Of a stretch of 55,952 bases of DNA, positions 1-55,952 are shown piece after piece (position 1 is the first letter of the stretch; every line of letters begins with the position of its first letter). The position numbers and the translations under genes were made by a program. This DNA comes from a virus (taxonomy: Duplodnaviria > Caudoviricetes). The notes under the pieces are model-generated. The model was not told the origin of the DNA and made no database searches. It saw only the letters and a list, made by a program, of their open reading frames with translations. Where the stretch lies: the IMG/VR virus record IMGVR_UViG_3300012346_000267, positions 1 through 55,952 of that record. One strand, 5' to 3'.

Positions 1-846
1 GTGCAAGAAATAGCAGACCAATCATACCAAGAAAAATTTGAAAAAGTTACTCAAGCACAAGAGCAAATTCGCTTATTAAATATGAGCGAAAGAGATAGAG
101 AATTTATGGAAGTTCAACTATGGCATGAGGAACAATTTAAACTATTAAGCGAAGCTGGTGAATCTACATATACATTAGAACAAGTAAGACTATCAAAGTT
201 AGCAGAATTGAAGTCCAAGTATATGGAAGAGGATATGCAGAAAGAGCAAGAAAGAGTTAACAAAGAAAACGCAATCAATCAAGCTAGAATATCAGTAGTG
301 CATGACCATGCTTCCGCAGTGCTTAGTGCTGGTAAAGCAGTGGCAGGACTATACAAGAAAAATGGAGTAGCTTTAAAAGCCTTTGCCATGGGCGAAGTGT
401 TGGTCAATACATCGAGAGCAGTAGCTGGAGCATTGGCTCCCCCTCCTACCGGGTTAGGGCCAGTATACGGGATACCATTGTCTTTACTAATGGCGGTCAA
501 AGGTGGGGCAGAGTTGGCCACAGTGGCTAGGCAAAAATTCGCTAAGGGTGGTTTTCCCTCAGGAAGAAATGCCCTAGTGCAAGTTAACGAACAGGGTCAG
601 GAATCTATACTAAACGCAAACGCTACATCAAGACTTGGTGTAGGTGCTATTAATGCAATAAACAACAATACATCACAAGCTGGTGGTATCACTAATCATA
701 TTAGCTATGCACCTACATTGACTATAGGTGATGGTTCAAGTGCTTCTTCACTATCTATCATGGATGCTTTAGAAAAAGACAAGAAAAGATTTGCGGACTT
801 CTTTGTGAACAATATATCTAAGAAAGGATATTTAAATTTTGCGTAG
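1..846 (+). CDS. Tape measure protein, C-terminal part (continues from 54494..55952)
   Basis: Helical E/Q/K-rich start, Ala/Gly-rich middle and FAKGG...VNEQGQESILNANAT motif typical of TMP C-termini; joins the ORF at the right end in frame with a 1-nt overlap. Confidence 0.85.
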   Translation: MQEIADQSYQEKFEKVTQAQEQIRLLNMSERDREFMEVQLWHEEQFKLLSEAGESTYTLEQVRLSKLAELKSKYMEEDMQKEQERVNKENAINQARISVVHDHASAVLSAGKAVAGLYKKNGVALKAFAMGEVLVNTSRAVAGALAPPPTGLGPVYGIPLSLLMAVKGGAELATVARQKFAKGGFPSGRNALVQVNEQGQESILNANATSRLGVGAINAINNNTSQAGGITNHISYAPTLTIGDGSSASSLSIMDALEKDKKRFADFFVNNISKKGYLNFA

Positions 847-1183
847 TGTAATAACATGGGAAATCGTGACCCTACTAATGGGTTCATTTGTGACAGTAAT
901 GACATATATATTCAACCTTCAGAAAATGAAGCAGAACCCTGCTACTAACAATGAAACAAGTGGACTAAACACATACATACAAGAGCAAGTTAAAATACTA
1001 ATGACAATGACTAATAGCTTCACAAAGCTGGAAGGTATATTGATTGCTCACCATGAAAAGATGTGTAGTCACCATGACAAACTTGAATTTATTAAAATGC
1101 AAGTATTAGATATTAATAATGGTATGGACTTAGTAATTAAAAGAACAGACGACATTCACGAGCATATACATCCAGCTAAATAA
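839..1183 (+). CDS. Small protein with one N-terminal transmembrane helix and a coiled coil; possible holin-like protein
   Basis: WEIVTLLMGSFVTVMTYIF hydrophobic segment, then heptad-like region; start codon uncertain. Confidence 0.4.
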   Translation: MRSVITWEIVTLLMGSFVTVMTYIFNLQKMKQNPATNNETSGLNTYIQEQVKILMTMTNSFTKLEGILIAHHEKMCSHHDKLEFIKMQVLDINNGMDLVIKRTDDIHEHIHPAK

Positions 1184-1184
1184 C

Positions 1185-1550
1185 ATGGCGACAATTAATC
1201 TAGATAATTTTAAAATTGAATACCAATATCCCATTGTACATTCTACGGTTGAAAATAAAATATCATATCGTAAAGATAATATGCAGTGGAACAATACACT
1301 ATTCACAAATACATCATGGACTCATTCTACTTGTCTACTATCATTAAAGGTTAGAACTGATTCATGGGCATCCTTACTAGCTTTGCTTGAAGGAAATAGA
1401 ATTTTTTTAAATACATTGATTACCACTGGTGTCGCTCCATTTGGTGATGGTATCGAAACAAATAATGTATATTTAAAAAATGTGTCTCCCAGTGAAAGAA
1501 TTATGTTTGAGTGGCGGTCTCTGCAATTGGAATTACTTAGGATTGATTAA
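1185..1550 (+). CDS. Putative distal tail / tail-tip protein
   Basis: Position after the TMP, beta-rich 121 aa; synteny only. Confidence 0.45.
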   Translation: MATINLDNFKIEYQYPIVHSTVENKISYRKDNMQWNNTLFTNTSWTHSTCLLSLKVRTDSWASLLALLEGNRIFLNTLITTGVAPFGDGIETNNVYLKNVSPSERIMFEWRSLQLELLRID

Positions 1551-1552
1551 TA

Positions 1553-9013: not shown

Positions 9014-9362
9014 TAATATTAATATTATATTAATGTTAATATTAATATTATCTATAATGATAATATTAATGTTAAAAACTCCAACACATATATGAGCCTA
9101 TACATAGATTGATGTATATATACTAAAATTTTAATTTGTTTAGTATATCTCCACGCTAATGTATACAATATTAGTATTATATTATCTAGATATTTAATAT
9201 TAATATTATAAATTAAATAAATAGTATATACAAACCCGTTGAATTTTTATTAATGAAAATATTATAAATTGTAAGTCGTTGAAAAATATGGACTTATATA
9301 ATTAATATTTATATTATAAATTATTTTACACTCAAACTTTAAAATGAAATTAAATTGAGTGT
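9011..9362. promoter_or_regulatory. Very AT-rich intergenic region with TAATATTAAT repeats; likely promoter region for replication genes, possible origin
   Basis: Almost no G/C over long stretches; repeated TAATAT; imperfect TTGAAT/TTGAAA -35-like boxes at 9239 and 9279. Confidence 0.45.
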
Positions 9363-16572: not shown

Positions 16573-16794
16573 ATGGCTTTCATAACAGCAGGCGGATTAG
16601 CTAACCAGATTAGAAAAGAATGTGGTATAGCTATATGCGAAGAGAATGATGGTAAAACCGTATTCAGTAAGGAAGAGTTATTGTTAGTAATTGCTTCATT
16701 CACTATGCGAAGGAGACAAGCAGAGGAGAATCTAGTAAAGGAAACAATAAAGCAAACCATACATGAGATGCAGGTTATCAATGGCGGAAATTGA
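16573..16794 (+). CDS. Hypothetical protein
   Basis: AAGGAG RBS; 73 aa. Confidence 0.6.
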   Translation: MAFITAGGLANQIRKECGIAICEENDGKTVFSKEELLLVIASFTMRRRQAEENLVKETIKQTIHEMQVINGGN

Positions 16795-18823
16795 TTACAT
16801 CGGTACATGGGAGTCTTTAGGCTTCGAGTTTAAACGGCATGAGAAAGAGTGTATTACATATAATCCCTTCGATGGTGGGGATAAGAAGATGTATGTCAAT
16901 GCCGAAACTGGTTTGTGGATAGCGTATGGGGTATCTTCACTAAGTGGTAATATGTATACATTCATCGAAATGTATTACGAACACTGCTTAAAGAATACTG
17001 GTATATCTAACTTAACTCCTTTAGCGGACGAAAAAAAGTTGCCAGTACAGGCCTTCTCAGGACAAGTGGCCTATAATAAACTAAACAATACATACCTTAT
17101 TGCCTTCAGAGAATTTGATGGAAAAATAAGAGGTATGCAAAGCTATGTGATCGGTGGGAAGTGTAAGAATGTAAAGGGACTGCAAACTGGTTTGTGGGGT
17201 GCAGAAAAACTAAAAGATAATAAGACTTCTCCAGTATGGGTATGCGAAGGTATATGGGATGCCCTAGCTATGCAGTGGCTTTGTAAGAGTACTGAAGAGG
17301 ATGCTTTAATTACTGCTATACAAGGTGGAAACCCATTTGGATTTAAAGAAGCCTTTGTACCTTTCTTAAATCGTAGGACTGTATATATATGGTATGATAA
17401 TGATAGAGCTGGTTTTGATGGTGAAGAAAAAGTATTCTCTCTACTACATAGGGTAGCAGAACAATTATTATTTGTTAGCTGGCCTGAGATACTAAGAGAA
17501 AAATATGATGTGAGGGACTTCTTAGTAGAGAATGGTGGGTTTCCCGGCTATCCTAAATTAGCTTTGAAAAAAGTAGTCGATACATTGAAGGGATTACTTA
17601 ATAGACAAACTAAGTACCAAAGAACCAGAGACCTAAATAAAGAGCATATACCTGAAGGTGACCTTGCAGTACCTCAGAGACAAGAGGTCGAAGACCTATT
17701 TAATAAATGGTTAAAAATGACAGATAGTGATGCCCTAGCAATTATGTTTGGAACTATATTTGCGAACCGTATATCGACCAGAGACCCTATATGGATGTTT
17801 ATGGTGACCCCTCCAGCAGGTATGAAGACCGAGCTTATATCGAAGCTATGTAAGTCTCCGAGGATTACATCGGTCAACAAACTAACTCCAGCCGGTCTTA
17901 TTAGTAGTTCAGTAATGCGAAACGGTGAAGACCCATCACTACTGAAGGCCTCAGATAAAAAAACTTTAGTGATTACTGACTTCACTACATTGATTGAAGG
18001 CAACCGTATTGTTAGGGATGAAGTGTTCTCTATACTGAGGGATGCCTATGACGGTAAAGTGGAAAAGCAATTTGCTAAATTTAAAAAAGTTATTGAAAGT
18101 AACTTCGGTATATTGGCCGCAGTGACACCTATCATAGATAGTTCCTCAAGTATTAATAGTGCATTAGGTGAAAGATTCCTAAGGTATAGAATCGAAAAAG
18201 ATTTAACACCTTTCGATGAAGAGGCAAGAATGATTAAGGCCATTGGCAATATAGGTGACGAGGGCCAGATGGGAGATGAATTGTTCGATATATGTTATAG
18301 ATACTTAGAGAAAAAAATGCCCGATGTACCTCCTAAACTTAACAAGGATAGATTGATTGAATTAATAAGTACCGCAAAGTTTACTGCTATGCTAAGGGCA
18401 CATCTAATCGAGGACGCACTATTCGGAGAAACACAAGTAATGCCATTCTCAGAATTTGGAACTAGACTAGCAAAACAATTTGTAAAGCTGGCCATGGGAC
18501 TATCTATATACTTTGACCAGTATGATGAAATTAGTGGAGAGGCTTTGAGACTAACTAAAGAAGTTGCTCTCGATACATGTCCTCAGATTACACTAGAAAT
18601 GGTTCGCAGTGTATATATACTGAACAAAGAAAACGGTAAATGTACATGTAATGATGTATCGGAAAAATTAGGTCTATCGAATACAACCATCACTAGGAGA
18701 GCTGGAAGGCTTACTCAATTGAATATTTTTAAAAGAATAAACGACGGATTTGGCAAAAAACAATACTACCAGCTATCCGAAACAGTGGAAAATTTAGTCG
18801 AAAAAGCGGTACTATTTAAGTAA
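16781..18823 (+). CDS. Primase-helicase (TOPRIM + AAA-like + C-terminal winged HTH)
   Basis: VWVCEGIWDALA and WYDNDRAG TOPRIM motifs; TPPAGMKT Walker-A-like and LVITDFTT Walker-B-like motifs; ERFLRYR arginine finger; C-terminal HTH (VSEKLGLSNTTITRR). Confidence 0.8.
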   Translation: MAEIDYIGTWESLGFEFKRHEKECITYNPFDGGDKKMYVNAETGLWIAYGVSSLSGNMYTFIEMYYEHCLKNTGISNLTPLADEKKLPVQAFSGQVAYNKLNNTYLIAFREFDGKIRGMQSYVIGGKCKNVKGLQTGLWGAEKLKDNKTSPVWVCEGIWDALAMQWLCKSTEEDALITAIQGGNPFGFKEAFVPFLNRRTVYIWYDNDRAGFDGEEKVFSLLHRVAEQLLFVSWPEILREKYDVRDFLVENGGFPGYPKLALKKVVDTLKGLLNRQTKYQRTRDLNKEHIPEGDLAVPQRQEVEDLFNKWLKMTDSDALAIMFGTIFANRISTRDPIWMFMVTPPAGMKTELISKLCKSPRITSVNKLTPAGLISSSVMRNGEDPSLLKASDKKTLVITDFTTLIEGNRIVRDEVFSILRDAYDGKVEKQFAKFKKVIESNFGILAAVTPIIDSSSSINSALGERFLRYRIEKDLTPFDEEARMIKAIGNIGDEGQMGDELFDICYRYLEKKMPDVPPKLNKDRLIELISTAKFTAMLRAHLIEDALFGETQVMPFSEFGTRLAKQFVKLAMGLSIYFDQYDEISGEALRLTKEVALDTCPQITLEMVRSVYILNKENGKCTCNDVSEKLGLSNTTITRRAGRLTQLNIFKRINDGFGKKQYYQLSETVENLVEKAVLFK

Positions 18824-19021: not shown

Positions 19022-19070
19022 AACAAGTAACAAGTAACAAGTAACAAGTAACAAGTAACAAGTAACAAAG
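19022..19070 (+). repeat. Heptamer tandem repeat (AACAAGT)x6 plus AACAAAG
   Basis: Directly visible; abuts the first hammerhead. Confidence 0.95.
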
Positions 19071-19132
19071 TCTAATTGATAAGGATTTAATATCCGAAAC
19101 TATACATCTATTAAGTATGTATAGTCTTAGAC
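19070..19132 (+). ncRNA. Type I hammerhead ribozyme 1 (U3-A8 core variant); predicted cleavage after C19126
   Basis: Stem I GTCTAA/TTAGAC; core TTGATAA; stem II GGAT-TTAAT-ATCC; GAAA; stem III CTATACAT/ATGTATAG; GTC triplet. Confidence 0.88.
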
Positions 19133-19563: not shown

Positions 19564-19571
19564 TTTGCCAC

Positions 19572-19611
19572 TATACATGTATGCCTTCACCAGGTATACA
19601 TGTATATTTTT
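19572..19611 (+). terminator. Intrinsic terminator-like hairpin
   Basis: TATACATGTATGCCT / AGGTATACATGTATA 15-bp stem (one G-U pair) followed by TTTTT. Confidence 0.55.
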
Positions 19612-19614
19612 AAA

Positions 19615-19671
19615 GTCTAACTGAAGAGGATTTAATATCCGAAACAGGTATGCTATATACATGTATTAGAC
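19615..19671 (+). ncRNA. Type I hammerhead ribozyme 2 (canonical C3-G8 core); predicted cleavage after A19665
   Basis: Stem I GTCTAA/TTAGAC; core CTGAAGA; stem II GGAT-TTAAT-ATCC; GAAA; stem III CAgGTATG/TATACaTG with one mismatch; GTA triplet. Confidence 0.88.
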
Positions 19672-19695
19672 ACAACAAAAAACAAAGGACAAAAA

Positions 19696-20037: not shown

Positions 20038-20111
20038 TTATATACAACATTGCTTTAATAGTAATACTGGGCTTTTTGCTTAAAGATGTACTAAGCAATA
20101 CCAAAGTCTAA
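20034..20111 (+). CDS. 25-aa hydrophobic peptide MIIYNIALIVILGFLLKDVLSNTKV
   Basis: AAGGAG RBS; ATGA overlap with the upstream stop; its own stop codon lies in stem I of hammerhead 3. Confidence 0.55.
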   Translation: MIIYNIALIVILGFLLKDVLSNTKV

Positions 20112-20163
20112 TTGATAAGGATTTAATATCCGAAACCACTTATGTATATAAGTGGTCTTAGAC
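20106..20163 (+). ncRNA. Type I hammerhead ribozyme 3 (U3-A8 core variant); predicted cleavage after C20157
   Basis: Stem I GTCTAA/TTAGAC; core TTGATAA; stem II GGAT-TTAAT-ATCC; GAAA; perfect stem III CCACTTAT/ATAAGTGG; GTC triplet. Confidence 0.9.
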
Positions 20164-30678: not shown

Positions 30679-30682
30679 TTAT

Positions 30683-31000: not shown

Positions 31001-31029
31001 TTGACAAACAAGAGGTAAAAATGTATGCT
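31001..31029 (+). promoter_or_regulatory. Near-consensus sigma70 promoter
   Basis: TTGACA-17 nt-TATGCT. Confidence 0.7.
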
Positions 31030-31110
31030 ATTTACTATGTCACCTTCACCTCTCTATACATCCTACAAAAAACTCAGTCTATACATACGGCTCTATACAT
31101 GGGTCGCTTA

Positions 31111-31620: not shown

Positions 31621-31715
31621 TACAACACTCTTTTACCCACAAGTAAAATTTTGAAAAAAACTCGAACCTCAAAAAAAATTTAGGAAAAAATTTTTAGAAA
31701 AATTTCGGAGCCAAC

Positions 31716-32273
31716 ATGTCACTAGGACACATATCAACAAAGAGAGTACCTCTCACATCATTAATACCAGCGGAGTACAATCCGCGAAGAATTAGTGACA
31801 AAGCAAAAAAAGGTTTATCAAATAGTATTACGCAGTTTGGTATACTTCAACCTATTGTATGGAACCAAAGAACAGGTCACATCATAGGTGGACATCAAAG
31901 GTATTATGACTTACTAGAAAGGGGTATTGCAGACACTGATGTGTTGGTAGTCAACTTTCCAATTGAGAAGGAAAAGGCCGCAAACATTGCCTTAAACCAC
32001 TCTGGTATATCTGGAGAGTATGATGAAGATAAGTTACAAGAACTTCTCCAAGACCTAGATCAACAATACATCGACGCTCTTAACTTTGATGAATTAAAAC
32101 TTCCTGAATGGGAAACATTACCAGAAGCACCAGTTGCAGATTTTGAAGAGAAGCCAACCACTATTACAATATCTATACCTCCTAGTGTTAAGTATATTAA
32201 AGATGAATTTATAGAAGTAATATCTGATTTAGTAAAACAACATTTCCCAGATAAAGGTATTAAAGTAGATTAA
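31716..32273 (+). CDS. ParB/Srx N-terminal-domain protein
   Basis: LIPAEYNPRRI, SITQFGILQPIVWN, IIGGHQR; GGAG RBS. Confidence 0.9.
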   Translation: MSLGHISTKRVPLTSLIPAEYNPRRISDKAKKGLSNSITQFGILQPIVWNQRTGHIIGGHQRYYDLLERGIADTDVLVVNFPIEKEKAANIALNHSGISGEYDEDKLQELLQDLDQQYIDALNFDELKLPEWETLPEAPVADFEEKPTTITISIPPSVKYIKDEFIEVISDLVKQHFPDKGIKVD

Positions 32274-32316
32274 TTAATATTAATATTAATATTAATCTAT
32301 ACATATAATCAATACT

Positions 32317-33240: not shown

Positions 33241-33572
33241 TAAAAGCAAAGATTCAATTTGAAGGAACGCATTATTGGCCAGATGCTCCAGACGATGTAT
33301 GGTTCTTGAGAAACGAACACAGACACATCTTTACAGTAGTTGCTACTTTAAAAGTTGCGCATAGCAATAGAGATACAGAATTTATTCTGTTAGGTAAAGC
33401 TATTAAGGCATACATAGATACAAACTACTTTCAAAGAAACAATATAGTATTGTTACAACAAACTTCGTGCGAACACTTAGCATCAGTACTAGCCATTCAA
33501 TTTGATCTTGCAGAGTGCGAAGTTTACGAAGACATGGAGAACAGCGGAGTGTATATAAATGAAAATCTTTAA
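33231..33572 (+). CDS. QueD-paralogous T-fold protein, DpdL-like (putative CDG decarboxylase)
   Basis: FEGTHYWPDAP, LRNEHRHIF (LxxxHRHxF), SCEHLA and VYEDMENSG; a canonical QueD is present separately. Confidence 0.65.
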   Translation: MYLIKAKIQFEGTHYWPDAPDDVWFLRNEHRHIFTVVATLKVAHSNRDTEFILLGKAIKAYIDTNYFQRNNIVLLQQTSCEHLASVLAIQFDLAECEVYEDMENSGVYINENL

Positions 33573-34536
33573 TATTATTATTGAGCCACTAGAGGAAAGG
33601 TATTCTATACAATGGGCAAAATGGTGGCAAAACGAATTTCGTAACCAGCACATTGAATCAATAATCATTAAAGGAGATGTATTAACTTCTAAAGTAGAAA
33701 CTGGTTCATTCTTAGATTGTCATGGAACTATATATTGGAAGTCAGAACAATTAAAAACAATATCACAGTATTTAAAAGACAAAATAATTAAAGACGGTGA
33801 TGTATTGTTCTTCCACGATTTGTGGTTTCCTGGGATAGAGGGATTGGCATATATACGAGACATCTCAGGAGTTGACTTTAAGATAGCAGGATACTTACAT
33901 GCAGGATCGTATGATCCAGCAGATTTGTTAAGCCAGTTAAACATGCAAAGATGGGTTAGAGGTTGTGAGGTTAGTTGGTTAAGACTTATCGATTATGTAT
34001 TTGTAGGCTCTTACTATCATAAGCAGTTATTAATAGATATATGCCCACTAGCTACAAATAAAATTTTTCCAATAGGGTATCCAGTACTAAAAGAAGATTT
34101 TTTTATTGAAAGTATTAAACAAAAAGTAGTAGTGTTCCCTCATAGATTAAACATTGAAAAGCATCCAGACCTTTTTGACCTGTTAGCGTGCAAACTAAAA
34201 GATGAAGCAGTATTTGTAAAAACAAAAGATGTATGCAAAACAAAGAATGAGTATTACCGACTACTAGCAAAAGCTAAAGTGTCAGTGTCATTCGCAGAGC
34301 AAGAAACTTTCGGTATAGCTATGGTAGAGTCTGCCTTAATGGGGTGCATACCAATTACACCTAACAAACTATCATATATAGACACTATGCCTTCAGAATG
34401 GCAATACGACTCTTTTAATAAATGTATAGAGCTGGTAAGAAAAGCATTAAATACTGAGAACTATGTATATCATAAAGAACTAGATTATCACCCTTCAACA
34501 ATAGTAGCAAAAGTCTTAAAGGAAATAGCAGCATGA
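33559..34536 (+). CDS. GT-B (GT4-like) glycosyltransferase
   Basis: VVFPHRLNIEKHP and QETFGIAMVE (ExFG-x4-E) motifs. Confidence 0.85.
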   Translation: MKIFNIIIEPLEERYSIQWAKWWQNEFRNQHIESIIIKGDVLTSKVETGSFLDCHGTIYWKSEQLKTISQYLKDKIIKDGDVLFFHDLWFPGIEGLAYIRDISGVDFKIAGYLHAGSYDPADLLSQLNMQRWVRGCEVSWLRLIDYVFVGSYYHKQLLIDICPLATNKIFPIGYPVLKEDFFIESIKQKVVVFPHRLNIEKHPDLFDLLACKLKDEAVFVKTKDVCKTKNEYYRLLAKAKVSVSFAEQETFGIAMVESALMGCIPITPNKLSYIDTMPSEWQYDSFNKCIELVRKALNTENYVYHKELDYHPSTIVAKVLKEIAA

Positions 34537-34961
34537 GTAAACCAAATTTAAAAGTATGGAAGTCTTGGGTTGGTGTAGAGGCAGAAGGTAACTTGGTCGG
34601 TGCTAACACCGTCTTTGTTATTAGTAATGATGCTAACCCGTTAAAGTTAGTTCAAGCTAAACACTTATATGTATGCCCAGAGGTTACTGAACTAAGTAAA
34701 ATAAAGAAGTGGTGTAAAGTGGTTAAGCCTTACATACTAACTTTGTCTTTACCTATTAACGAAAGAACTGACTTTGCAAAAAAAGTTAGAGCTGTTTGCA
34801 ACAAAAATAAAATTAAATTTAACTACCAAGTATTTATTAAATATACAGGTATACGCCCTAATACCGTTAGACTTGATTGGAAACCTTTTGAAAATGAGAG
34901 TTATGCTTGTGTCAGGAACACAACTATACATGATTATAAAAACGACAGGAGATTAGAATGA
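34533..34961 (+). CDS. Uncharacterised protein in the deazaguanine cluster with a QueE-like N-terminus
   Basis: GVEAEGNLVGANTVFV aligns by eye with Que[17 protein letters not shown]; no CxxC radical-SAM motif. Confidence 0.6.
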   Translation: MSKPNLKVWKSWVGVEAEGNLVGANTVFVISNDANPLKLVQAKHLYVCPEVTELSKIKKWCKVVKPYILTLSLPINERTDFAKKVRAVCNKNKIKFNYQVFIKYTGIRPNTVRLDWKPFENESYACVRNTTIHDYKNDRRLE

Positions 34962-35395
34962 GTAATACATATACAGCAGTAAGACGATTACAATTTTGTG
35001 CTGGTCACAGAGTATACAAGCACGAAAGTAAATGTGCAAACTTGCATGGGCACAACTATGTTGTTTATATACATGCCAGACCAAAACCACACTATTCATT
35101 GGACGAAATAGGTAGGGTCATTGATTTCTCTGAGTTGAAACAAAAGGTAGGTAGTTGGATAGATACATACTGGGATCACGGGTTTATATACTACTCTGAA
35201 GACCCAGAATTAAAATTGATACATCATACCTTCGACGACAAGAAGTTTTATGTATTGCCCACTAATCCTACTGCTGAAAACATGTCATCATATTTGTTAG
35301 ATGTATGTGAAATGTTATTTAAAGATAGTGACATAGAAGTTTTTAAAATTGTTTTATGGGAAACAGAAAATTGTTTTGCGGAGGTTGAAAAATGA
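34958..35395 (+). CDS. queD: 6-carboxy-5,6,7,8-tetrahydropterin synthase
   Basis: FCAGHR, CANLHGHNY, IDFSELK, WDH, NPTAEN, WETEN. Confidence 0.95.
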   Translation: MSNTYTAVRRLQFCAGHRVYKHESKCANLHGHNYVVYIHARPKPHYSLDEIGRVIDFSELKQKVGSWIDTYWDHGFIYYSEDPELKLIHHTFDDKKFYVLPTNPTAENMSSYLLDVCEMLFKDSDIEVFKIVLWETENCFAEVEK

Positions 35396-36027
35396 AAGTG
35401 AAAGAAGTGTTCGGAGTAACTATACAAGGTGAAGGTACATACGCTGGGCATCCAGCTATCTTTGTTAGGTTCAGTACATGCAACATGTGGTCAGGTAAAG
35501 AGGCTGACAAGGCTACTAGCTTTTGTCCTTTTTGCGACACTAACTTTTATGGTGGTACTGAATACCCACCTCAAACTATATATGAGAAGATTACTGAAAT
35601 AAGTAATGACATTCCATACATAGTAGTGCTGTCGGGTGGTGAGCCTTTACTTCAGAGAACTGAGGAACTATTAGATTTAGTGAAACTATTAGCTAGTGCT
35701 AATTATCCTATACATATAGAGACTAATGGTACTATTAAAATACATAAAGACTTAAAGTCGTATATAGACCATGTGACATGTAGTCCTAAATTACCACTTG
35801 AGAAATGTAAAATAGATTGGAGGGATGTAGATGCCTTGAAACTATTGTATCCTCATACCGATACATTGATTACTCCAGAAGCGTTTGATAACTTGCCAAT
35901 ATTCTATAAGTATTTGCAACCATTAGATAATGAAAAGAATATGTACATTGCTTCTAAGAAAGTAAAAGAGTTAGGCAATGGGTGGGCTATATCTTTACAA
36001 CTACACAAATTTTTAAAAGAAAGGTAA
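35392..36027 (+). CDS. queE: 7-carboxy-7-deazaguanine synthase (radical SAM, CX14CX2C type)
   Basis: TIQGEG, FVRFSTC-X14-CPFCDT, SGGEP, IETNGT, SPK, SLQLHK. Confidence 0.95.
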
Positions 36028-36032
36028 TATAC

Positions 36033-36875
36033 ATGAGACACTTAACTCACGAAACAGTAATGGAAACAATAAGGAAAAATTTTCCTTCTGAGTTCTATAC
36101 AAAGAAAGTCTTTGGAGTACCTAGAGGTGGATACTACATTGCCCAATGTATACAAACACTCGGACTAGCTGAACAAGTTGGTGACCCTGCACAAGCGGAC
36201 TTAATAGTGGACGACATTATTGATTCTGGTAATACTGCTCGCAAATACATAGAACAAGGATATAAGTTTTGGGTTCCATTTGTTAATGATGTGAATGAAT
36301 GGGTAGTGTTTCCTTGGGAGGTATCTGCTGAAGTAGATCAGGAAGATATTATTACTAGATACATACAAGCAATTGGTGACGACCCGAATAGAGAAGGTTT
36401 ACTTGAAACACCAAGGAGAGTAGTAAAAAGCTGGAGGGAGTTGTATAGTGGATACACTAAAGACCCTAAAGATATACTCGGTAAAGTGTTTGCATCAGAT
36501 ACTGACACCATGGTTATATGTAAAGACATAGAGTTTTTTTCCACTTGTGAACATCACATGATTCCTTTCCATGGAAAAGTGCATATTGGATACATACCTA
36601 GTGGGCATGTAGTTGGTCTGTCTAAACTAGCAAGGTTGGTTGAGATATATGCAAGACGATTACAAATACAAGAGAACATGACAGATCAAATTGCAAAAGC
36701 AATAATGGAGCATGTTCCTGGATGTAAAGGAGTGATGGTAGTAGTTAATGCTAGGCATCTATGTATGTGTGCAAGAGGTGTTGGTAAACAACATAGTTCA
36801 ATGACTACTTCTTCTATACAAGGTATGTTTAAAGAGCAAGTAGTACGGGCTGAATTTTTATCATTGGTGAGCTAG
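36033..36875 (+). CDS. folE: Type I phosphoribosyltransferase domain fused to GTP cyclohydrolase I
   Basis: N-terminal [18 protein letters not shown] and WVVFPWE (Gpt-like PRTase); C-terminal [28 protein letters not shown] and HLCMCARG (FolE). Confidence 0.92.
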
Positions 36876-36876
36876 T

Positions 36877-37515
36877 ATGGAAGAAGATCAAGAAGAAGAA
36901 GCTGAGTATACTGAAGTAGAGTATACTAAAGCCTACGAAGATGAACCTATAGTACCTACTAAGGATGTAGATACATCTGTCCTAACTCCTGAAGATATTA
37001 ACCAATTACCTATTGAAAATACCGCTCTATACTATCCACATGAGAATGAGCAAGCCTTAGTTGGCTTTGCTCCACTTATAGTCGAGGAAATGTTAAAGCA
37101 TGTAACCTTAGGATGTAACTTAACCGATATAGCGAACATTGTAAGACTACCACCAGCCAGAGTTCGCAATTGGTATGATACTAACTATTGTAATTTTAAG
37201 TATGCAGTTGACTATAGTATGGCAGACCATAAAAGAAGATTGCTACAGAAGCTAGTAACTGCCGACGATGGTTTAAAAATAAAAGCATCTCAATTCTTAT
37301 TAGAACGAAAGTATAGGGATGAATATGGTAAAGAAATAAGAATAGATGTTAACCATGTAATGATAGACAATATAACTAGAGTTGTATTTGAGACAGCAGT
37401 TAAGTATATTAAAGATACCGATATATTGAAACTATTTGTTAATGACCTATCAGAACAATTAGCAATGATACGGCCTTCGGCTGGTATAGAGACTGGTCAA
37501 AGGCTTTCAACATAA
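36877..37515 (+). CDS. Putative terminase small subunit
   Basis: HTH-like segment and ASQFLLERKYRDEYG motif; lies upstream of TerL. Confidence 0.6.
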   Translation: MEEDQEEEAEYTEVEYTKAYEDEPIVPTKDVDTSVLTPEDINQLPIENTALYYPHENEQALVGFAPLIVEEMLKHVTLGCNLTDIANIVRLPPARVRNWYDTNYCNFKYAVDYSMADHKRRLLQKLVTADDGLKIKASQFLLERKYRDEYGKEIRIDVNHVMIDNITRVVFETAVKYIKDTDILKLFVNDLSEQLAMIRPSAGIETGQRLST

Positions 37516-37984: not shown

Positions 37985-39559
37985 ATGATTAGTAATAACC
38001 CATATACATTGTATGGTTCAAAACTTAAAGATGTATTGAACGAATACCTTGAGACTGGTATTAATAGGGATTTGTCAGTTGAATCATTCTTTACTGATAG
38101 AGTTAAGATTAAATCAATACATCATACCATCGTACCTTTTGTGCCTAAAAAAATTCAGCTTATACATCAGCAGGCTAAACAGGATGCACTAAAGGCTGGA
38201 AAGAAAGCTAGATTCCTTTTATTAAAATCGAGGCGTATGGGCATGACAACATGGGAGCAAGCACTATCATATAAAGCAGTTGCTACCATGCCAAACACTA
38301 CATGCGTGACCTTAGCGGATAACCAATCCAATACTAAAAGTATTTTTAGAATGGTTAATCTAATGGCACAACTAGACCCTCGATTGAAGTATAAAACAAA
38401 TGAATCTAAAATTGCTTTAGAAATTCCGGCTATCAATACATACTTTCACATCGGTACTGCTGGTTCTAGATCATTCTCCAGAGGAAACAATGTGTATAGA
38501 GCGCATGGTTCTGAGGTAGCTTGGTGGGCTGGAGACTATGATTTAATAGGTAATTTAATGGCTGGTATATCTGAAGCAACTAGGTATGGAGAAGTAATTT
38601 TGGAAACTACTGCCAATGGTGCAAGTGGTTGGTTTTATGAAGAGTACAAAGAAGCAATGGCCGGAAAAAATCAATGGGTTCCTTTATTCTATCCTTGGTT
38701 TACCGATCCTCAAAATACATTAGTCACTACTAAAGAAAAAGAACAAGAGTGGTTGGATACTGTCACTGGTGAAGAAAAAGAATTAATGTCACATCATAAT
38801 TTATCTATACATCAAATGCTATGGCGTAGGGATAAACAAGGCGAATTAAAAAAACTATTTCAACAAGAATATCCAGAGTCATGGACACAAGCCTTTTTAA
38901 CTAGGAGCAATACATTCTTCGACCAATCATTACTATCTGAATTAGCAACTACTCTTAAAGCCCCTATTAATCATAGGGATTATTTAACTGTATGGCAGAG
39001 ACCTATACAAGGGCATAAGTATATACTTGGTGCAGATACTGCTGAAGGTGTAGTGGGTGGTGACAATAGTGTTGCAGGTATATTGAATAAAACTACTGGA
39101 GAACAGGTAGCAGTATTGAGAGGAAAGTGGAGACCAGAGGTATTTGCTAGGAAGTGTATAGAGCTATGCAAGGAATACAACAATGCTTTATTCACATGCG
39201 AAATAAATAATCATGGGCATAGTGTTATGAATACAGTAATGAATGTATTGATGTATAAACATATATACTATAGAACAAAGATACTGGAGAAGGATAAGTA
39301 TGGAAACGGTAAAGTAGAAAAAGTTCCCGGCTGGAAAACTGATAGTGCTACTCGACCTATACTACTTGATGAATTGAATGAAGCACTAGAAAATAAATTT
39401 ATGATAGTGAATGATAGTGTATTCCTTGCAGAATGTAAATCGTTTATAGATACTGGAGAAAGATATGAAGCAGACTCCGGTAAGAAGGACGATTCAATAG
39501 TGGCTTGGGGTATTGCATGGCAAGGTCGAAAAGCAAAAACTTTAACTTATAAGATATAG
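37985..39559 (+). CDS. terL: Terminase large subunit
   Basis: LKSRRMGMTT Walker A, HGSEVAWW Walker B, ETTANG, GADTAEG nuclease motif, KDDSIVA. Confidence 0.95.
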   Translation: MISNNPYTLYGSKLKDVLNEYLETGINRDLSVESFFTDRVKIKSIHHTIVPFVPKKIQLIHQQAKQDALKAGKKARFLLLKSRRMGMTTWEQALSYKAVATMPNTTCVTLADNQSNTKSIFRMVNLMAQLDPRLKYKTNESKIALEIPAINTYFHIGTAGSRSFSRGNNVYRAHGSEVAWWAGDYDLIGNLMAGISEATRYGEVILETTANGASGWFYEEYKEAMAGKNQWVPLFYPWFTDPQNTLVTTKEKEQEWLDTVTGEEKELMSHHNLSIHQMLWRRDKQGELKKLFQQEYPESWTQAFLTRSNTFFDQSLLSELATTLKAPINHRDYLTVWQRPIQGHKYILGADTAEGVVGGDNSVAGILNKTTGEQVAVLRGKWRPEVFARKCIELCKEYNNALFTCEINNHGHSVMNTVMNVLMYKHIYYRTKILEKDKYGNGKVEKVPGWKTDSATRPILLDELNEALENKFMIVNDSVFLAECKSFIDTGERYEADSGKKDDSIVAWGIAWQGRKAKTLTYKI

Positions 39560-39568: not shown

Positions 39569-41713
39569 ATGGAATGGAATAGATTTTTACAAAAAGAATT
39601 AGCTAAAAAAGGTTATACTAACCTTGATTCTGAATTTTTTAACTATGCTAAAGGCGGTAAAAGTAAAGAAGTAAACGAAAGGTTATCATACAAGAATAAT
39701 GTATGGGTATACTCTGCATGTCAGGCTATCACTAGAAATATCGTACAATTACCAAAGGCGTTAGACTATACAAATACAACTAATAAAGAACTGATTACTA
39801 ATCACCAAATACTAGATTTATTTAATGCACCTAATCCAATGATGGATAGGGCTAGTTTTTGGGAAACTATCATTTTAAATTTGTTGTTACCTACACCAAA
39901 TACTGATGGTGGCCAATGTTTCCTAGTGTTCGAGACAGGTTCACCTAGCAAAAAGTTTTCAGTATCTAGAGGAGATATACCTAAAGAGATATATCCTTTT
40001 TCTTCAGAATTTGTGAAAGCTGTTAAAGATTCAAAGAATATATTAGTAGGATGGCAACTAATCATAGGTCAACAAAAAATAAACTATACATTAGATGAAG
40101 TTATTAGAATTAACTTTACTGACCCTGACGACCCATCAGGAGGTATGTGTCCTTTAGTATCTGCGTATCCATCACTTCGTGAAGATATAAAGGCTCAATT
40201 AGTAAATGAAACTTTCTTCGATAATAATGCTTCATTAGGTGGTACATTAAAAACTAATGCAGAATTATCATTAGAACAGATAAAAGAAATAAGAGAGCAA
40301 TGGGAGTCTATGTATGGAGGTGGAGCTAATGCTGGTAAAGATGCTATACTACATAGTGGATTAGAGTACCAACAATTCCAAAGAACGCATTTAGAAATGC
40401 AATTCTTAGAACAAAGAAAATGGACTAGAGACCAAGTCCTCGCAGTATACGGAGTGCCTAAAGCTGAAGTATCAAGCTATGAAGATTTAAATTATGCAAC
40501 TGCCATTACTGCAAATAAATCATTCTGGGATAAAACATTATTACCATTAGACAAGCGCATATTGGAAAGTTTAAATAAATGGGTTGGTAAAGTTGACAGA
40601 GGAGTCTATACATTAGTCTCTGACTATACAAGGGTCGAAGCGTTACAAGACAACTACGCCAACAAATTAGAACAAGCTAAATTAATGATGGGCTTAAATA
40701 TTCCATTATCCATAATTAACACAAGGTTAAAACTTGACCTAGACCTATCAAAGGTAGTATGGGCTGATACTGCTTTAATTAGTTATGGATTAGTACCAGC
40801 CGAAATGGTAATGAGTGGAGATACATATCCTGACTATGCTACTCCTGAAGAAGATACTACTCCTACCAATACTGAAGGAGAAGGAGAAGAGAAATCGACA
40901 CTACATAGGGCTGGTAGTATGCACTACTTAGCACAGTATCACAAAGAAGTATTAATACCTAGTGAAAAAAAGTTTAAAAAAGATTTAGTGAAGTTCTTTG
41001 TTGGTCAAAGGAATAAAGTACTAGACTCAATTGATACATGGGTCAATACTAATAAGAGTATAACTGGTTCAGTATTGAAAGCAAAAAAAGAACCGATTAA
41101 CTTTATACTAGACAAAGCAGAGCAAGACAAAACAATAAAATCATTAATGTTACCATCATATAAGGCATCCATACAATTAGAGGCTTCAAGACTTAGTAAA
41201 GAAGTCGAAGTAATAAACTGGGATGAAAATGGTTCTGCACTTAAAAAGGCTTTAAAGGATAGAATGAATGTATTGGCCAATGTCAATACAACTACCAACA
41301 AAGCAATTAGTACCAGAGTTAATGCAGTAATGAAACAAGCAATTGAAGAAGACCTATCCATCACTGACATAAGTCAATTATTAAAAAGTAATATTAGAAC
41401 CTTATTTAATAACCCTGCCAGAGCCAATACAATAGCTAGGACAGAGAGTGCGGCTATACATTCAATAGCAAGACAAGACATACTTAAATCCGCTGAAGTG
41501 GAAGAAGTAGAATGGGTAACCGCTGGTGATGAAAGAGTGAGGGGTGTTGGAACAGATACATTCTCTCATATTGAATTAGATGGACAAGTAATAAAGATAG
41601 GTGAAGTGTTTAATAATGGTGAAGATATATCTTATCCTCACGACCCAAACGCCAGTGCTGGTAATGTAATAAACTGTAGATGTATAGTAGTACCAATAAT
41701 AAAAGGAGAATAG
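39569..41713 (+). CDS. HK97-type portal protein fused to a MuF/gp7-like minor head domain
   Basis: VYSACQAI, PNPMM, FFDNNASLGG and VYGVP portal motifs; C-terminal RANTIARTE, WVTAGDERVR and INCRC MuF motifs. Confidence 0.9.
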   Translation: MEWNRFLQKELAKKGYTNLDSEFFNYAKGGKSKEVNERLSYKNNVWVYSACQAITRNIVQLPKALDYTNTTNKELITNHQILDLFNAPNPMMDRASFWETIILNLLLPTPNTDGGQCFLVFETGSPSKKFSVSRGDIPKEIYPFSSEFVKAVKDSKNILVGWQLIIGQQKINYTLDEVIRINFTDPDDPSGGMCPLVSAYPSLREDIKAQLVNETFFDNNASLGGTLKTNAELSLEQIKEIREQWESMYGGGANAGKDAILHSGLEYQQFQRTHLEMQFLEQRKWTRDQVLAVYGVPKAEVSSYEDLNYATAITANKSFWDKTLLPLDKRILESLNKWVGKVDRGVYTLVSDYTRVEALQDNYANKLEQAKLMMGLNIPLSIINTRLKLDLDLSKVVWADTALISYGLVPAEMVMSGDTYPDYATPEEDTTPTNTEGEGEEKSTLHRAGSMHYLAQYHKEVLIPSEKKFKKDLVKFFVGQRNKVLDSIDTWVNTNKSITGSVLKAKKEPINFILDKAEQDKTIKSLMLPSYKASIQLEASRLSKEVEVINWDENGSALKKALKDRMNVLANVNTTTNKAISTRVNAVMKQAIEEDLSITDISQLLKSNIRTLFNNPARANTIARTESAAIHSIARQDILKSAEVEEVEWVTAGDERVRGVGTDTFSHIELDGQVIKIGEVFNNGEDISYPHDPNASAGNVINCRCIVVPIIKGE

Positions 41714-53669: not shown

Positions 53670-53700
53670 TCAACACTAACAATTAATCCAAGGAGCCAAC

Positions 53701-54162
53701 ATGGATTTGAAAGAAGAAAACAGAATTTTTTCCCCAGAGGAAATTCAAAAATTAAAAGGATATATGGGATTCTCTTCAGAGGATTCCTTTCTATATACGC
53801 CAAAGATATATAGAGCAGTATTCCCAGAGAATAAAGACAAGTGGCCAGTATTTAAACTAAGAGGTTTGAATGGGTATCAAGTTGCGAAAGCTCAAGACGA
53901 TGTCGGTGTATATAGTCCGGGAACTGATAAAATGCAGTTCAATACTGGTGCGCAAAGGATTAAAACTATTGAGAGCAATGTACTTGGCTGGAAAAACTTA
54001 TTTGGTATGGATGGTAAAGAAATCCTTTTCAAACAGAATGGTCAGAAGGTACATATACAATGTATTGAAAAACTACCAGCCCCTTTACAAATGGAACTTC
54101 ACGAGGCTATTAATGAAAGGTCTTATCTTAACCATGAGGAACTGGAGGGTTTAGAATTTTAG
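53701..54162 (+). CDS. Tail assembly chaperone (gpG-like)
   Basis: Between tube and TMP; LGWKNL motif; slippery site near the 3' end. Confidence 0.8.
   Translation: MDLKEENRIFSPEEIQKLKGYMGFSSEDSFLYTPKIYRAVFPENKDKWPVFKLRGLNGYQVAKAQDDVGVYSPGTDKMQFNTGAQRIKTIESNVLGWKNLFGMDGKEILFKQNGQKVHIQCIEKLPAPLQMELHEAINERSYLNHEELEGLEF
54147..54153 (+). other. -1 programmed ribosomal frameshift site G GGT TTA
   Basis: X XXY YYZ heptamer in the correct phase; the -1 frame is open from here to TAG 54488. Confidence 0.85.
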
Positions 54163-54488
54163 CGGGCTATCACTCAGGAGCCATACCATCCGCTCCATGT
54201 ATGGTTTGTGGCACTGACGATAAAATAGCTGAATCTAGAGGATGTAAAGGCCAACCCGCACCTAAACCAGTTATAGTTGAAGTATATGAAGGAAGAAAAA
54301 TTAAATACTGGAATTGCCCTAGAAAGTTTATTCCAAAGCAAATACTGGCTTGGTTTGATAAATACAAATATCATACCAAGTTTCAAGGTGCTACGATGGA
54401 AAAGTATGAAGATCAAATGTATAGATTCATTCAAGCGTGTAATGTATATGAGATGTGCCTAGCACAATTTGAAAAGGAAAAAAGGTAG
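54147..54488 (+). CDS. Frameshift extension of the tail chaperone (gpGT-like)
   Basis: -1 frame reads RILAGYHSGAIPSAPCMVCG...; includes the track ORF 54201..54488. Confidence 0.75.
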   Translation, partial: GFRILAGYHSGAIPSAPCMVCGTDDKIAESRGCKGQPAPKPVIVEVYEGRKIKYWNCPRKFIPKQILAWFDKYKYHTKFQGATMEKYEDQMYRFIQACNVYEMCLAQFEKEKR

Positions 54489-54493
54489 TATGT

Positions 54494-55952
54494 ATGGCCA
54501 GTGGTGGTGATGAAGAATTAACAGTGGTAGCTAGGTTAGTAGACCTAGTTACACCACAACTAAAAGCAATGGCCATGGAAGCCAGTAAGTTCACTGCCAA
54601 AATTAGTGAAGGACTGGGAGTAGCAAAGAAAAAATTTTCCGAGTTTAAAGATTCAGTATTGACTATTAGTAATGCCATAAAAGGCTTCGTAGCAATACAG
54701 TTTGCTGGATGGATATATAATCAAGTAAAAGCAATAGCCACAATGGCTGACAGTATACGGGATACATCGAATAGATTAGGTATAGCTACCGACGACCTCC
54801 AGAAATTGCAGTATGCCGCAAAGCTAACAGGTATGGAAGTCGAAGCCCTTGATATGGTAATTACAAGGTTCAATGTATCTGTATCCGACGCTTCTAAAGG
54901 CAATGCAGAGGCATTGAATAAATTTAAAGCATTAGGTGTTAGTATAGCTAATACTGATGGAACATTAAAAGATACTGCTACATTATTTTCCGATGTGGCC
55001 GAAGGTATATCTAAAATCAATAGCCCTGCACAACAAGCTGGATTAGCTTCAGATATATTCGGAAGAGGTGTTGTAAGACTACTGCCATTATTAAAACAAG
55101 GTAAAGAAGGTATAAAACAATTTGGGGACGAAGCTGAAAGACTAGGTATAGTTATCTCAGAAGAATCTATACAATCTGCGGAAATGTTTAATGATTCATT
55201 AGACAGATTAAATAAACGATTAGATGGTGCAAAGATTAAAGCATTGACACCTCTACTGGATGCCCTTACTGATGCCTTCGACCAATCAGTAGAAGCAATG
55301 TCCACAGTCAATACATCCAAGTTCAATGATGGCTTAGGTGATTCAGTAAATGTAATGAAAGTATTTATTGACTCTTTATTAATTGGGTGGGAGACAATTA
55401 AAATAATATTTAATCAACTCTCTGGAATGTTACTCACTTACTTTATAGAACCTGTAGTATTGTCTTTTAAAACTGTCTCTACTATAGATAGTAAAGGTAT
55501 GGCCGGTTTTTGGCAAGCTATTAGAGGATATATATCTGGATCGGCAAATACTGTAAAAGATTTGTTTAATGAGGTTGGTAATGATACTGTCAATACTGCT
55601 AAAAGAATGGGTAATGAGTTTGTAGCAACACAAGAGCAAACCATACAAAGTATAGAGAAGATAAAAAAACTAGCTGAAAACATAGGTAAACCTAGTGATA
55701 AAAAAGGACTGAAACCAAAGCCTAATACTGAAACTGACAAAGTAACTGAAGTAGATACATCGGCTGAAAGTGCTGACAAGCAAGCAAAGATCGAAGCCGC
55801 AAAAAGATTGAATGAAGAATTATTAATAATAAATATGAAAGGTGATGAACAAAAACTTGCCCAATTGGAACTCTGGAGAAAAGATCAAATGGCAATTCTA
55901 GTAGCTGGCGGTATGGATACTGTAGCTTTAGAACAAGCTGTCAATACAAAGG
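54494..55952 (+). CDS. Tape measure protein, N-terminal part (runs off the window end)
   Basis: ATG 54494, MASGGDEELTVVARLVD...SNRLGIATDDLQKLQYAAKLTG...; no stop seen to the window end; missing from the ORF track because it has no stop codon. Confidence 0.88.
   Translation, partial: MASGGDEELTVVARLVDLVTPQLKAMAMEASKFTAKISEGLGVAKKKFSEFKDSVLTISNAIKGFVAIQFAGWIYNQVKAIATMADSIRDTSNRLGIATDDLQKLQYAAKLTGMEVEALDMVITRFNVSVSDASKGNAEALNKFKALGVSIANTDGTLKDTATLFSDVAEGISKINSPAQQAGLASDIFGRGVVRLLPLLKQGKEGIKQFGDEAERLGIVISEESIQSAEMFNDSLDRLNKRLDGAKIKALTPLLDALTDAFDQSVEAMSTVNTSKFNDGLGDSVNVMKVFIDSLLIGWETIKIIFNQLSGMLLTYFIEPVVLSFKTVSTIDSKGMAGFWQAIRGYISGSANTVKDLFNEVGNDTVNTAKRMGNEFVATQEQTIQSIEKIKKLAENIGKPSDKKGLKPKPNTETDKVTEVDTSAESADKQAKIEAAKRLNEELLIINMKGDEQKLAQLELWRKDQMAILVAGGMDTVALEQAVNTK

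Follow-up and report, generated by a model that had tools for sequence, protein, structure and literature searches.

Several bacterial chromosomes are punctuated by a short word that recurs throughout the genome, namely the uptake signal sequences (USS) of the Pasteurellaceae, the DNA uptake sequences (DUS) of Neisseria and the highly iterated palindrome HIP1 (GCGATCGC), which are 8-12 nucleotides (nt) long and occur about once per kb. Avoidance of short words, among them restriction sites and protospacer adjacent motifs (PAMs), is well known in phage genomes, and it is to our knowledge rare for a word to be strongly enriched through coding DNA and for that enrichment to be conserved. The subject of this study is such a word in a tailed phage, the hexamer ATACAT and its reverse complement ATGTAT in the IMG/VR record IMGVR_UViG_3300012346_000267 (Duplodnaviria; Caudoviricetes), which was analysed as a complete record of 55,952 bp (GC 35.6%) and is referred to below as the window. 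The word is enriched at the level of the DNA, the enrichment is found in a clade of related phages, and an array of copies stands at the head of the packaging genes. It is tentatively proposed that the word, in the extended form VNATACAT (V, any base but T; N, any base), is a recognition site for a protein of the packaging module, a ParB-like protein and/or the small terminase (TerS), and marks the whole genome. A search of the open-access literature on the word and on over-represented phage hexamers returned nothing describing such enrichment in phages.

In the packaging (pac) site of phage P1 clusters of hexanucleotides flank the cut. The stoperators of Cluster A mycobacteriophages are 13-bp sites present in tens of copies, mostly intergenic and in one orientation relative to transcription. 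These stoperators are described as dispersed sites read by one phage protein (PMC9283540). The pacL and pacR regions of SPP1 are likewise described as offering multiple contact points that flank the cut, in an account which treats the specificity of small terminases as still unclear (PMC9611059), and the cyanobacterial HIP1 is reported as a high-frequency word linked to DNA methyltransferases (PMC4390886).

Enrichment of ATACAT/ATGTAT across the genome

The initial annotation had listed 16 starts of ATACAT in bases 1-2600 against a rough expectation of about 2. All 16 are exact and a 17th lies at 2428, while base composition gives an expectation of about 1.6; ATGTAT occurs in this stretch as a single copy at 1465. 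Over the whole window no hexamer is commoner than ATACAT (180 copies) and ATGTAT (162), and AAAGAA comes third with 132. The corresponding expectations are 33.7 and 32.9 from base composition, 41.9 and 38.6 from an order-1 Markov model and 101.2 and 93.7 from an order-3 model; the order-4 values of 171.8 and 141.0 come near the observed counts because the constituent pentamers (ATACA, TACAT, ATGTA and TGTAT) show an excess of their own, of about 2.3-3.3 fold.

Codon-aware nulls were built on a simple longest-ORF (open reading frame) call of the + strand, which leaves small errors in the frame and non-coding counts given here. A synonymous null of 300 shuffles per gene, which kept every protein sequence and the codon counts of each gene, yielded 84.2 ± 6.1 copies of ATACAT (maximum 103) and 93.1 ± 5.3 of ATGTAT (maximum 108), and 300 codon permutations yielded 52.9 ± 5.4 and 63.4 ± 5.1, which implies that codon choice and amino-acid sequences are both bent toward the word. 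In 100 Euler shuffles over 17,608 concatenated codons, which preserve dicodons and hence retain frame-0 hexamers by construction, the excess persisted in frame 1 (ATACAT 85 versus 58.0 ± 4.3; ATGTAT 79 versus 49.7 ± 4.9) and in frame 2 (41 versus 32.9 and 25 versus 19.6). The bias therefore survives the codon- and dicodon-preserving shuffles that had been put forward at the outset as its decisive control. The recurrence of the word in several reading frames, also remarked on by the initial annotation, extends to all three frames on both strands, each with an excess of 1.5-3.4 fold over the synonymous null, and every one of the 29 genes of at least 600 bp is enriched (1.49-6.56 fold). The window holds 342 copies, of which 317 lie outside the array and 288 lie inside ORFs in both orientations; the dispersed copies reach a density of about 6 per kb. 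In the 1750 bp of non-coding DNA outside the array there are 21 copies where 2.8 are expected, a density twice that of coding DNA. When k-mers of length 3-8 were ranked against 100 synonymous shuffles, the word with its sub- and super-strings topped the 4-, 5- and 6-mer lists and filled much of the 7- and 8-mer lists; the top-ranked k-mers include GTAT/ATAC, TACAT, CTATAC, GATGTA/TACATC, AGATACAT/ATGTATCT, CAATACAT/ATGTATTG and CTATACAT/ATGTATAG, each with its reverse complement. Since it survives synonymous, permutation and dicodon shuffles, is present in all frames and on both strands and is stronger in non-coding DNA, the enrichment acts at the level of the DNA and not of the codon.

The 5' flank of the copies is also constrained, T at position -2 being rare on either strand (7% and 6%) and C frequent (38%). 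Outside the array, A, C and G at -2 were observed 117, 114 and 64 times against 49.7, 42.1 and 35.7 in the synonymous null, which amounts to 295 non-T copies versus 127.5, compared with 22 versus 25.3 for T; copies with T at this position are thus not enriched and the enriched unit is an 8-bp sequence, VNATACAT. One-mismatch neighbours show a graded response (GTACAT 1.66, ATACCT 1.51, ATATAT 1.36 and AGACAT 0.45 fold). Purine-pyrimidine alternation, DNA flexibility or a Z-like structure as the cause was ruled out, given that ACACAC occurs once versus 12.9 expected and that ACATAT and ACACAT stand at 0.94 and 0.81 fold. Among the copies outside the array no preferred pair spacing, orientation or helical phasing was found, and the gaps between them are near-exponential (mean 176 bp, coefficient of variation 0.98). 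An NtcA-like TGTA-N8-TACA pairing was rejected, as the spacing of 12 that it needs is absent from the over-represented spacings. Along the window the word shows no consistent bias toward either strand (180 versus 162 overall), and local bias is irregular both here and in the relative G001 described below.

A separate observation concerns short palindromes, which are avoided to an extreme degree despite the presence of a DNA-modification cluster. Relative to the synonymous null, ACGT is found once versus 82 (179 by composition), the single copy lying at 27150, GATC 34 times versus 110, AAGCTT 0 versus 19, GAATTC 1 versus 16, ACTAGT 3 versus 30, TCATGA 1 versus 15 and ATGCAT 1 versus 11.8, and the avoided set varies among relatives. 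The enrichment as a by-product of ACGT, GATC or ATGCAT avoidance was rejected, the effect being too small and the avoidance being absent in relatives that are still enriched.

A motif array at the head of the packaging genes

The array that the initial annotation had placed just upstream of parB-dpdA was recovered as 25 copies in the 1037-bp non-coding stretch 30679-31715, 23 of them within 31021-31614. This array and the features discussed with it are as follows.

30827-30876, + strand: AT-rich repeats of TAATATTAATATTA units, directly upstream of the array
31001-31029, + strand: sigma-70-like promoter match (TTGACA, 17 nt, TATGCT; 10 of 12 positions) at the array's left edge
31021-31614, both orientations: motif array of 23 copies, unit consensus tCTATACATa, spacings of 12-18 bp frequent
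31716-32273, + strand: standalone ParB-like protein of 185 aa (Pfam ParB_N 31.9 bits; phrog_620, E 3.4e-34)
36877-37515, + strand: TerS-like protein of 212 aa (phrog_4102, E 3.7e-05, and E 6.6e-7 in the genome search)
37985-39559, + strand: TerL, terminase large subunit (phrog_38407/24361/38)
39569-41713, + strand: portal (phrog_2662, E 3.3e-72)
19573-19666, no strand assigned: three copies, at 19573, 19596 and 19657, of the 10-bp perfect palindrome ATACATGTAT, the sole copies in the genome

The array occupies the head of the terS-terL operon, in the order array, ParB-like protein, TerS-like protein (phrog_4102), TerL and portal, and the ParB-like gene starts 100 bp past the last array copy. 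Its left end (31056-31095) reads ATACAT on the + strand and its right end (31448-31609) reads ATGTAT. If the promoter at 31001-31029 were used, the array would be transcribed as the leader of the ParB-like gene; it is a consensus match only, and sigma-70-like matches are no more numerous in the array region than in shuffles. Folded as a single strand, the array region 31036-31715 gives a long-range hairpin (-168.9 kcal/mol; z -3.3 against 20 shuffles), which follows from the opposite orientations of the word at the two ends and is given no weight.

The TAATATTAATATTA unit is itself unusual, with 11 copies at no more than one mismatch versus 0.23 expected, all on the + strand and confined to three non-coding regions at module boundaries (9014-9316, 30830-30868 and 32275-32294). 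Copies of the ATACAT type come after each of these blocks, and at 32280-32309 the repeat makes a good sigma-70-like match ending in TATAAT. The ATACATGTAT palindromes all lie in one 132-bp spacer (19564-19695), which holds six hexamer copies versus 0.19 expected, and look like operators. In the same part of the genome an element of about 33 nt, aagtctaattgataaggatttaatatccgaaac, occurs three times ahead of small genes (~19085-19116, 19615-19646 and 20100-20131), each time followed by motif copies, and a run of the heptamer GTAACAA at 19030-19070 stands just before its first copy. Paired CTATGTATAG units were also scanned for in IMG/VR, but none of the 11 loci found shows enrichment and they were dismissed as chance matches.

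Distribution of the word among related phages

Relatives were gathered with an alignment of homologues of the window's DNA polymerase (80 loci each from IMG/VR, metagenomes and genomes), and the 147 loci with at least three expected copies served as an enrichment panel, in which some records are duplicated across two collections. The panel has a median observed/expected ratio of 1.15 and is headed by L013 (4.55), L104 (4.49), the window (4.35), L012 (4.22), L105 (3.55) and L103 (2.95), the last of which stems from a 52.7-kb metagenome record. The polymerases of these five relatives are 40-57% identical to that of the window, and the GC content of L104 is 46%. In the polymerase tree they fall into a seven-member clade (support 100/99) in which six members are enriched 2.95-4.55 fold, while the non-enriched one, L034, is sister to L013 (support 96/94). 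Locus L014, which lies outside the clade, has a weak excess (14 versus 7.2) and is labelled negative in the tree. Restriction-site avoidance varies among the enriched genomes, as ACGT occurs once in each of the window, L103 and L013 but 20 times in L012 and 21 times in L104, and GATC is depleted in the window and abundant in L013, which argues that the enrichment is not a side effect of site avoidance. Comparison of orthologous genes (polymerase, primase and Sak4) shows only 0-3 motif positions in common for each genome pair, so that motif density is maintained while individual sites turn over. Conservation across the clade with most orthologous sites turned over supports the initial annotation in regarding the word as a positively maintained site rather than a chance accumulation.

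The genome to which L013 corresponds, G001, comprises 51,791 bp (estimated 88% complete) and is syntenic with the window, 19 of whose 74 ORFs match it by tblastn at 25-46% identity. It carries 195 copies of the word (104 versus 65.1 ± 4.9 and 91 versus 66.9 ± 4.4 under the synonymous shuffle) and also avoids T at -2 (8%). As in the window, an array lies directly upstream of a ParB_N gene, here one that passes the Pfam threshold: 25 copies in 700 bp, many of them 11 bp apart and mostly in one orientation with local palindromes, with an AT-rich block ahead. The phrog_4102 TerS-like gene follows directly after the ParB_N gene. Searches of G001 with hidden Markov models detected none of DpdA (phrog_887), FolE (PF01227) and QueD (PF01242), the window serving as positive control. 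The array of G001 is neighboured by genes resembling nucleoside 2-deoxyribosyltransferase and GT29. In this genome GC-rich hexamers are very strongly over-represented (AGCCGC 43 versus 1, AGCGGC 31 versus 1), which probably reflects a tandem or dispersed repeat of its own.

The genome of L034, G003 (61 kb, 99% complete, 55% GC), has replication genes in common with the window at 30-40% identity, but it contains only 6 motif copies, and no other word stands out to a similar degree. The slot ahead of its terminase is taken by a gene for a 455-aa fusion of ParB_N to an N6/N4 DNA methylase (L187:15468-16835, minus strand), and G003 has neither an upstream non-coding array nor a phrog_4102 TerS. 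The contrast suggests that the bias tracks the type of packaging module and not the replication enzymes, and it speaks against a mutational bias driven by the polymerase. Within the clade the ParB_N slot thus appears in three arrangements, standalone beside DpdA, standalone, and fused to a methylase.

Gene layout and the 7-deazaguanine cluster

Nearly all genes of the window lie on the + strand. Tail genes occupy about 44-56 kb and run on at 1-9 kb, a replication module at 9.3-18.8 kb encodes a SNF2-type helicase, an exonuclease, a Sak4-like protein, DNA polymerase I and a Toprim primase, and small ORFs with no assigned function fill 19-30 kb; the packaging genes run from the TerS-like gene through a DUF5675 protein, TerL and portal to the capsid genes. 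No tRNA genes were found in the window. The class given in the source collection assigns the record no terminal repeats, and its completeness is estimated there at 95%. A tape-measure gene (54494-55951) runs off the 3' end and a 5'-open ORF lies at 1-846; their frames fail to join across the record ends, so that a small amount of sequence seems to be missing there. The primase (16763-18823) has a C-terminal winged-helix domain (HTH_24, Pfam), and the CPF motif of its N-terminal zinc finger in other clade members is replaced by NPF or NCF in the window, L103 and L012. In a named-phage collection, megablast with 20 kb of the window returned no match and tblastn with the portal and DpdA only matches below 30% identity; a portal-based scan of IMG/VR revealed no relatives, and a scan of genome contigs with the window's polymerase gave only polymerases at no more than 32% identity.

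Between the ParB-like and TerS-like genes lies a cluster of genes for 7-deazaguanine DNA modification (dpd), composed of the following parts.

32317-33240, + strand: DpdA-like DNA guanine transglycosylase (phrog_887, E 3.9e-29; no Pfam match)
33231-34961, + strand: three cluster genes encoding proteins of 113 aa (phrog_17812), 325 aa (weakly glycosyltransferase-like) and 142 aa
34958-36875, + strand: QueD (6-pyruvoyl tetrahydropterin synthase family, PTPS), QueE (radical SAM) and FolE (GTP cyclohydrolase I), with E 1.6e-28, 6.9e-09 and 3.9e-69

The glycosyltransferase-like ORF (33559-34536) scores 18.5 bits in Pfam versus a cut-off of 26.4, and the 142-aa ORF (34533-34961) has neither a Pfam nor a PHROG match and no BLASTP similarity to the adjoining QueD. 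QueC was not found among the approximately 60 window ORFs scanned. Published phages with this gene set are described as carrying a QueD-like decarboxylase, DpdL, and as making 2'-deoxy-7-deazaguanine (dDG) (PMC10516641). The genes that the cluster (32317-36875) separates adjoin in G001, and we read it as a probable later insertion into the packaging module. The four of its genes that were scored are among the six with the lowest motif excess of the 29 genes of at least 600 bp (1.49, 2.09, 2.03 and 1.66), which is consistent with later arrival.

Candidate readers and competing explanations

The symmetry between strands, the 8-bp form in two diverged genomes, the density in non-coding DNA, the palindromic copies and the retained position of the array point to a recognition word in double-stranded DNA that would be maintained by selection or drive tied to a reading protein. 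In the reading favoured here a protein would recognise VNATACAT sequence-specifically throughout this phage clade. The primary site would be the 23-copy array heading the packaging module, as a primary loading or pac region, and the approximately 300 dispersed copies would be kept dense so that one protein could recognise the whole phage chromosome. Because the array heads the packaging operon, the candidates for this role that need the fewest assumptions are the standalone ParB-like NTPase-fold protein and/or the small terminase, and binding would probably serve to mark phage DNA as self, either for packaging or so that the ParB-like protein can coat it. The word could be kept this dense by ordinary selection or by a packaging-linked drive in which word-richer DNA is packaged more often, like that proposed for DNA-uptake sequences, and the dpd cluster would be a later insertion and not the cause of the bias. 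The initial annotation had already considered a binding site for the ParB-like protein, the terminase or another self-marking protein; the synteny of array, ParB_N and TerS-like genes and the extended word with non-T at -2 make this the best of the readings. The sequence data establish the enrichment, its extended form, its conservation in the clade, the retained position of the array and the independence from the dpd genes, whereas the binding, the protein responsible and the effect of binding are inferred.

The ParB-like protein was modelled with AlphaFold2 (AF2) at a pLDDT (predicted local distance difference test) of 86.5, and the best Foldseek matches are the N-terminal NTPase (CTPase) domains of ParB, Noc, KorB and PadC over about 127 columns. 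Its closest homologues are 56% identical and are encoded on the long contigs that also carry the closest polymerases. Several observations weigh against the favoured reading. Pfam recognises ParB_N alone (residues 9-82) and no helix-turn-helix (HTH) DNA-binding domain, and among the 40 homologues found only the N-terminal 125 residues are conserved (motifs PAEYNPR, GGHQR and KEKAANIALN) whereas the C-terminal tail varies. Proteins of this subfamily are usually the N-terminal domain of ParB-methylase fusions (phrog_498), and most ParB_N loci surveyed in IMG/VR (80 fetched, 78 with enough upstream sequence) encode fusions of about 410-450 aa; none of the 78 has an upstream array, which rules out a general link between ParB_N genes and such arrays. 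The word is identical in the window and G001 although the candidate readers are poorly conserved, with 24% identity over 80 residues between the ParB-like proteins and an alignment of only 22 residues between the TerS-like proteins. This weak conservation of both candidates is the main weakness of the proposed binding, even if conserved parS sites read by diverged ParB proteins are well known. Small terminases are moreover described as often binding DNA weakly and without clear specificity in vitro (PMC9611059). The correlation between module and motif rests on three full-length genomes, the contrast with G003 is confounded by the shift to 55% GC and probably by a different host, and a mutational process would give the same unspaced, near-exponential placement of the dispersed copies.

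Such a process is the core of a neutral molecular drive, in which a context-specific bias of mutation or repair, for example very-short-patch-like mismatch repair, polymerase bias or the funnelling of avoided restriction sites, would turn near-cognates into VNATACAT with no selection on single copies. The Poisson-like placement and turnover of sites, the graded enrichment of one-mismatch neighbours and an order-4 Markov expectation that nearly reaches the observed count are all in its favour, as is the fact that ATACAT and ATGTAT are transition products of the avoided ATGCAT and ACGT-containing hexamers (2 versus 23.6 and 2 versus 20.9, both strands). It is nonetheless unlikely, because funnelling would supply at most about 40 of the at least 165 excess copies, L012 and L104 are enriched with no ACGT avoidance, and G003, with the same replication module and a polymerase sister to that of G001, has no bias; a 23-copy non-coding array kept in position in two genomes and the higher non-coding density would also go unexplained. 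In a further explanation the word would be an operator or iteron for another regulator or a replication initiator of phage or host. The array would be an origin, with an AT-rich stretch and iterons, or a late-operon control region, the palindromes would be operators, and the dispersed copies would be minor sites bound weakly by a global DNA-binding protein, similar to the scattered C1 operators of P1 or mycobacteriophage stoperators but much denser. In both the window and G001 the array is immediately preceded by an AT-rich repeat block, ATACATGTAT is repeated three times in one intergenic region only, motif copies come after promoter-like elements at ~19.09, 19.62, 20.10 and 32.28 kb, non-coding density exceeds coding density, and the primase has the winged-helix domain noted above. 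The primase was rejected as reader, however, because neither the recognition helix of that domain nor the cysteines of its N-terminal zinc finger are conserved among motif-positive genomes. Pfam found no HTH-type regulator in the approximately 60 ORFs scanned, the GC skew around 31 kb shows no sign of an origin, and some 300 intragenic sites in both orientations go far beyond any described operator network, so that this explanation is possible but doubtful.

The opposite orientations of the word at the two array ends, ATACAT on the left and ATGTAT on the right, are the arrangement expected if a packaging cut between them made two protected ends, and the 5-nt Chi of Bacillus has a per-strand density of a similar order. 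A Chi-like polar signal that protects both ends against a host enzyme of the RecBCD/AddAB type is still very unlikely, given that there is no genome-wide polarity, that the local bias changes sign irregularly in the window and G001 and beside the array is opposite to the adjacent array half, and that the array of G001 is mostly in a single orientation with local palindromes. The word had also been suggested to be the context of the G targeted by the DpdA/glycosyltransferase system. In this view DpdA would preferentially insert 7-deazaguanine at the guanine of ATGTAT, and the ParB-like protein might act as a DpdB-like partner. The T-G-T in ATGTAT is reminiscent of the U-G-U read by tRNA-guanine transglycosylases, the ParB-like gene adjoins dpdA, and the syntenic ParB_N of G003 is fused to a DNA methylase, so that ParB_N domains of this slot accompany DNA-modifying enzymes. 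In bacterial Dpd systems a ParB-like protein, DpdB, is described as working with DpdA (PMC10164549). The idea found no support and is highly improbable. If it were correct, relatives lacking the cluster should also lack the bias, and yet G001 has its 195 copies and an array with no DpdA, FolE or QueD; the dpd genes themselves are among those with the lowest motif excess, and the word covers only 342 of the 19,896 G:C pairs of the window (1.7%). The published DpdA contexts are of 2-3 nt, GA and GGC (PMC7544227, PMC10484667), and phages with FolE, QueD and QueE but no QueC have been associated with dDG, reported to make up about 30% of all nucleotides in Cellulophaga phage phiST (PMC10516641). 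An attractive misinterpretation is corrected in this way, in that the 7-deazaguanine genes would adjoin the array by insertion and not by function.

To return to the recognition word of the packaging module, its fullest version is that the clade writes an 8-bp self-mark about every 160 bp, that the ParB-fold NTPase and/or the small terminase load at the array, and that the capsid-filling or coating machinery tells phage from host by word density, which would make it a viral counterpart of the DNA-uptake sequences sustained by packaging-linked drive; in this complete form the proposal is speculative and rather doubtful. What is new is a putative genome-wide functional word in a phage, tied to an array in the packaging module. 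If the word is such a genome-wide signal, it offers a testable route to how terminases or coating proteins choose viral over host DNA, and a function could be assigned to the widespread standalone ParB_N proteins of phages. Word density is in addition a simple signature by which members of this uncultured clade may be recognised, and it may date acquired DNA, as with the lower excess in the dpd cluster.

Relation to known systems

The systems of DNA modification that contain DpdA and DpdB resemble the window in their genes, DpdA, QueD, QueE, FolE and an adjoining ParB-like gene, but the motif bias is also found in a relative with none of DpdA, QueD and FolE, and the described contexts of 2-3 nt are not reported as enriched in the sources cited; the lack of co-occurrence removes the word from this class, just as the lack of strand polarity removes it from the class of Chi and KOPS (FtsK-orienting polar sequences). 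The stoperators of Cluster A mycobacteriophages and the C1 operators of P1 provide a precedent for many copies of one asymmetric word across a phage genome. Here the copies number in the hundreds, are mostly inside genes (288 of 342) and take both orientations, and the word was therefore not assigned to the stoperator class, whose sites are mainly intergenic and co-oriented with transcription.

As in ParB-parS, Noc-NBS (Noc-binding site) and KorB-OB (KorB operator), a gene of the ParB fold lies beside an array of presumed sites and the model matches the N-terminal domains of those proteins, and Noc and KorB also have many dispersed sites. Unlike them, the ParB-like protein has no recognisable HTH, the scan of window ORFs turned up no ParA-type ATPase, and there are about 340 sites in 56 kb where these systems have tens per chromosome or plasmid. 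A repeat array beside parB (23-25 copies in the window and G001) is thus present, but with HTH and ParA missing from what was scanned the locus was not placed among ParABS centromeres. The repeat-built pac sites of P1 and SPP1 have in common with it a cluster of short repeats that heads the terminase operon, with two groups flanking a centre and TerS as the expected reader. Known pac sites occur as single loci, however, and their units are not known to be over-represented elsewhere in the genome.

The likeness to USS, DUS and HIP1 lies in a very dense short word that is found genome-wide, in genes, in all frames and in both orientations, that ranks at the top of the k-mer excess under codon-aware nulls, and that is conserved across related genomes while single copies turn over. 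Those words belong to bacterial chromosomes, and the one described here belongs to a phage, has about 6 copies per kb and forms a dense array beside packaging genes. USS and DUS are kept because a protein machine that moves DNA prefers them; here such a machine would be the packaging-module protein proposed above. The closest kinds are thus USS, DUS and HIP1 by distribution, repeat-built pac sites and par centromeres by position, and stoperators as dispersed phage sites.

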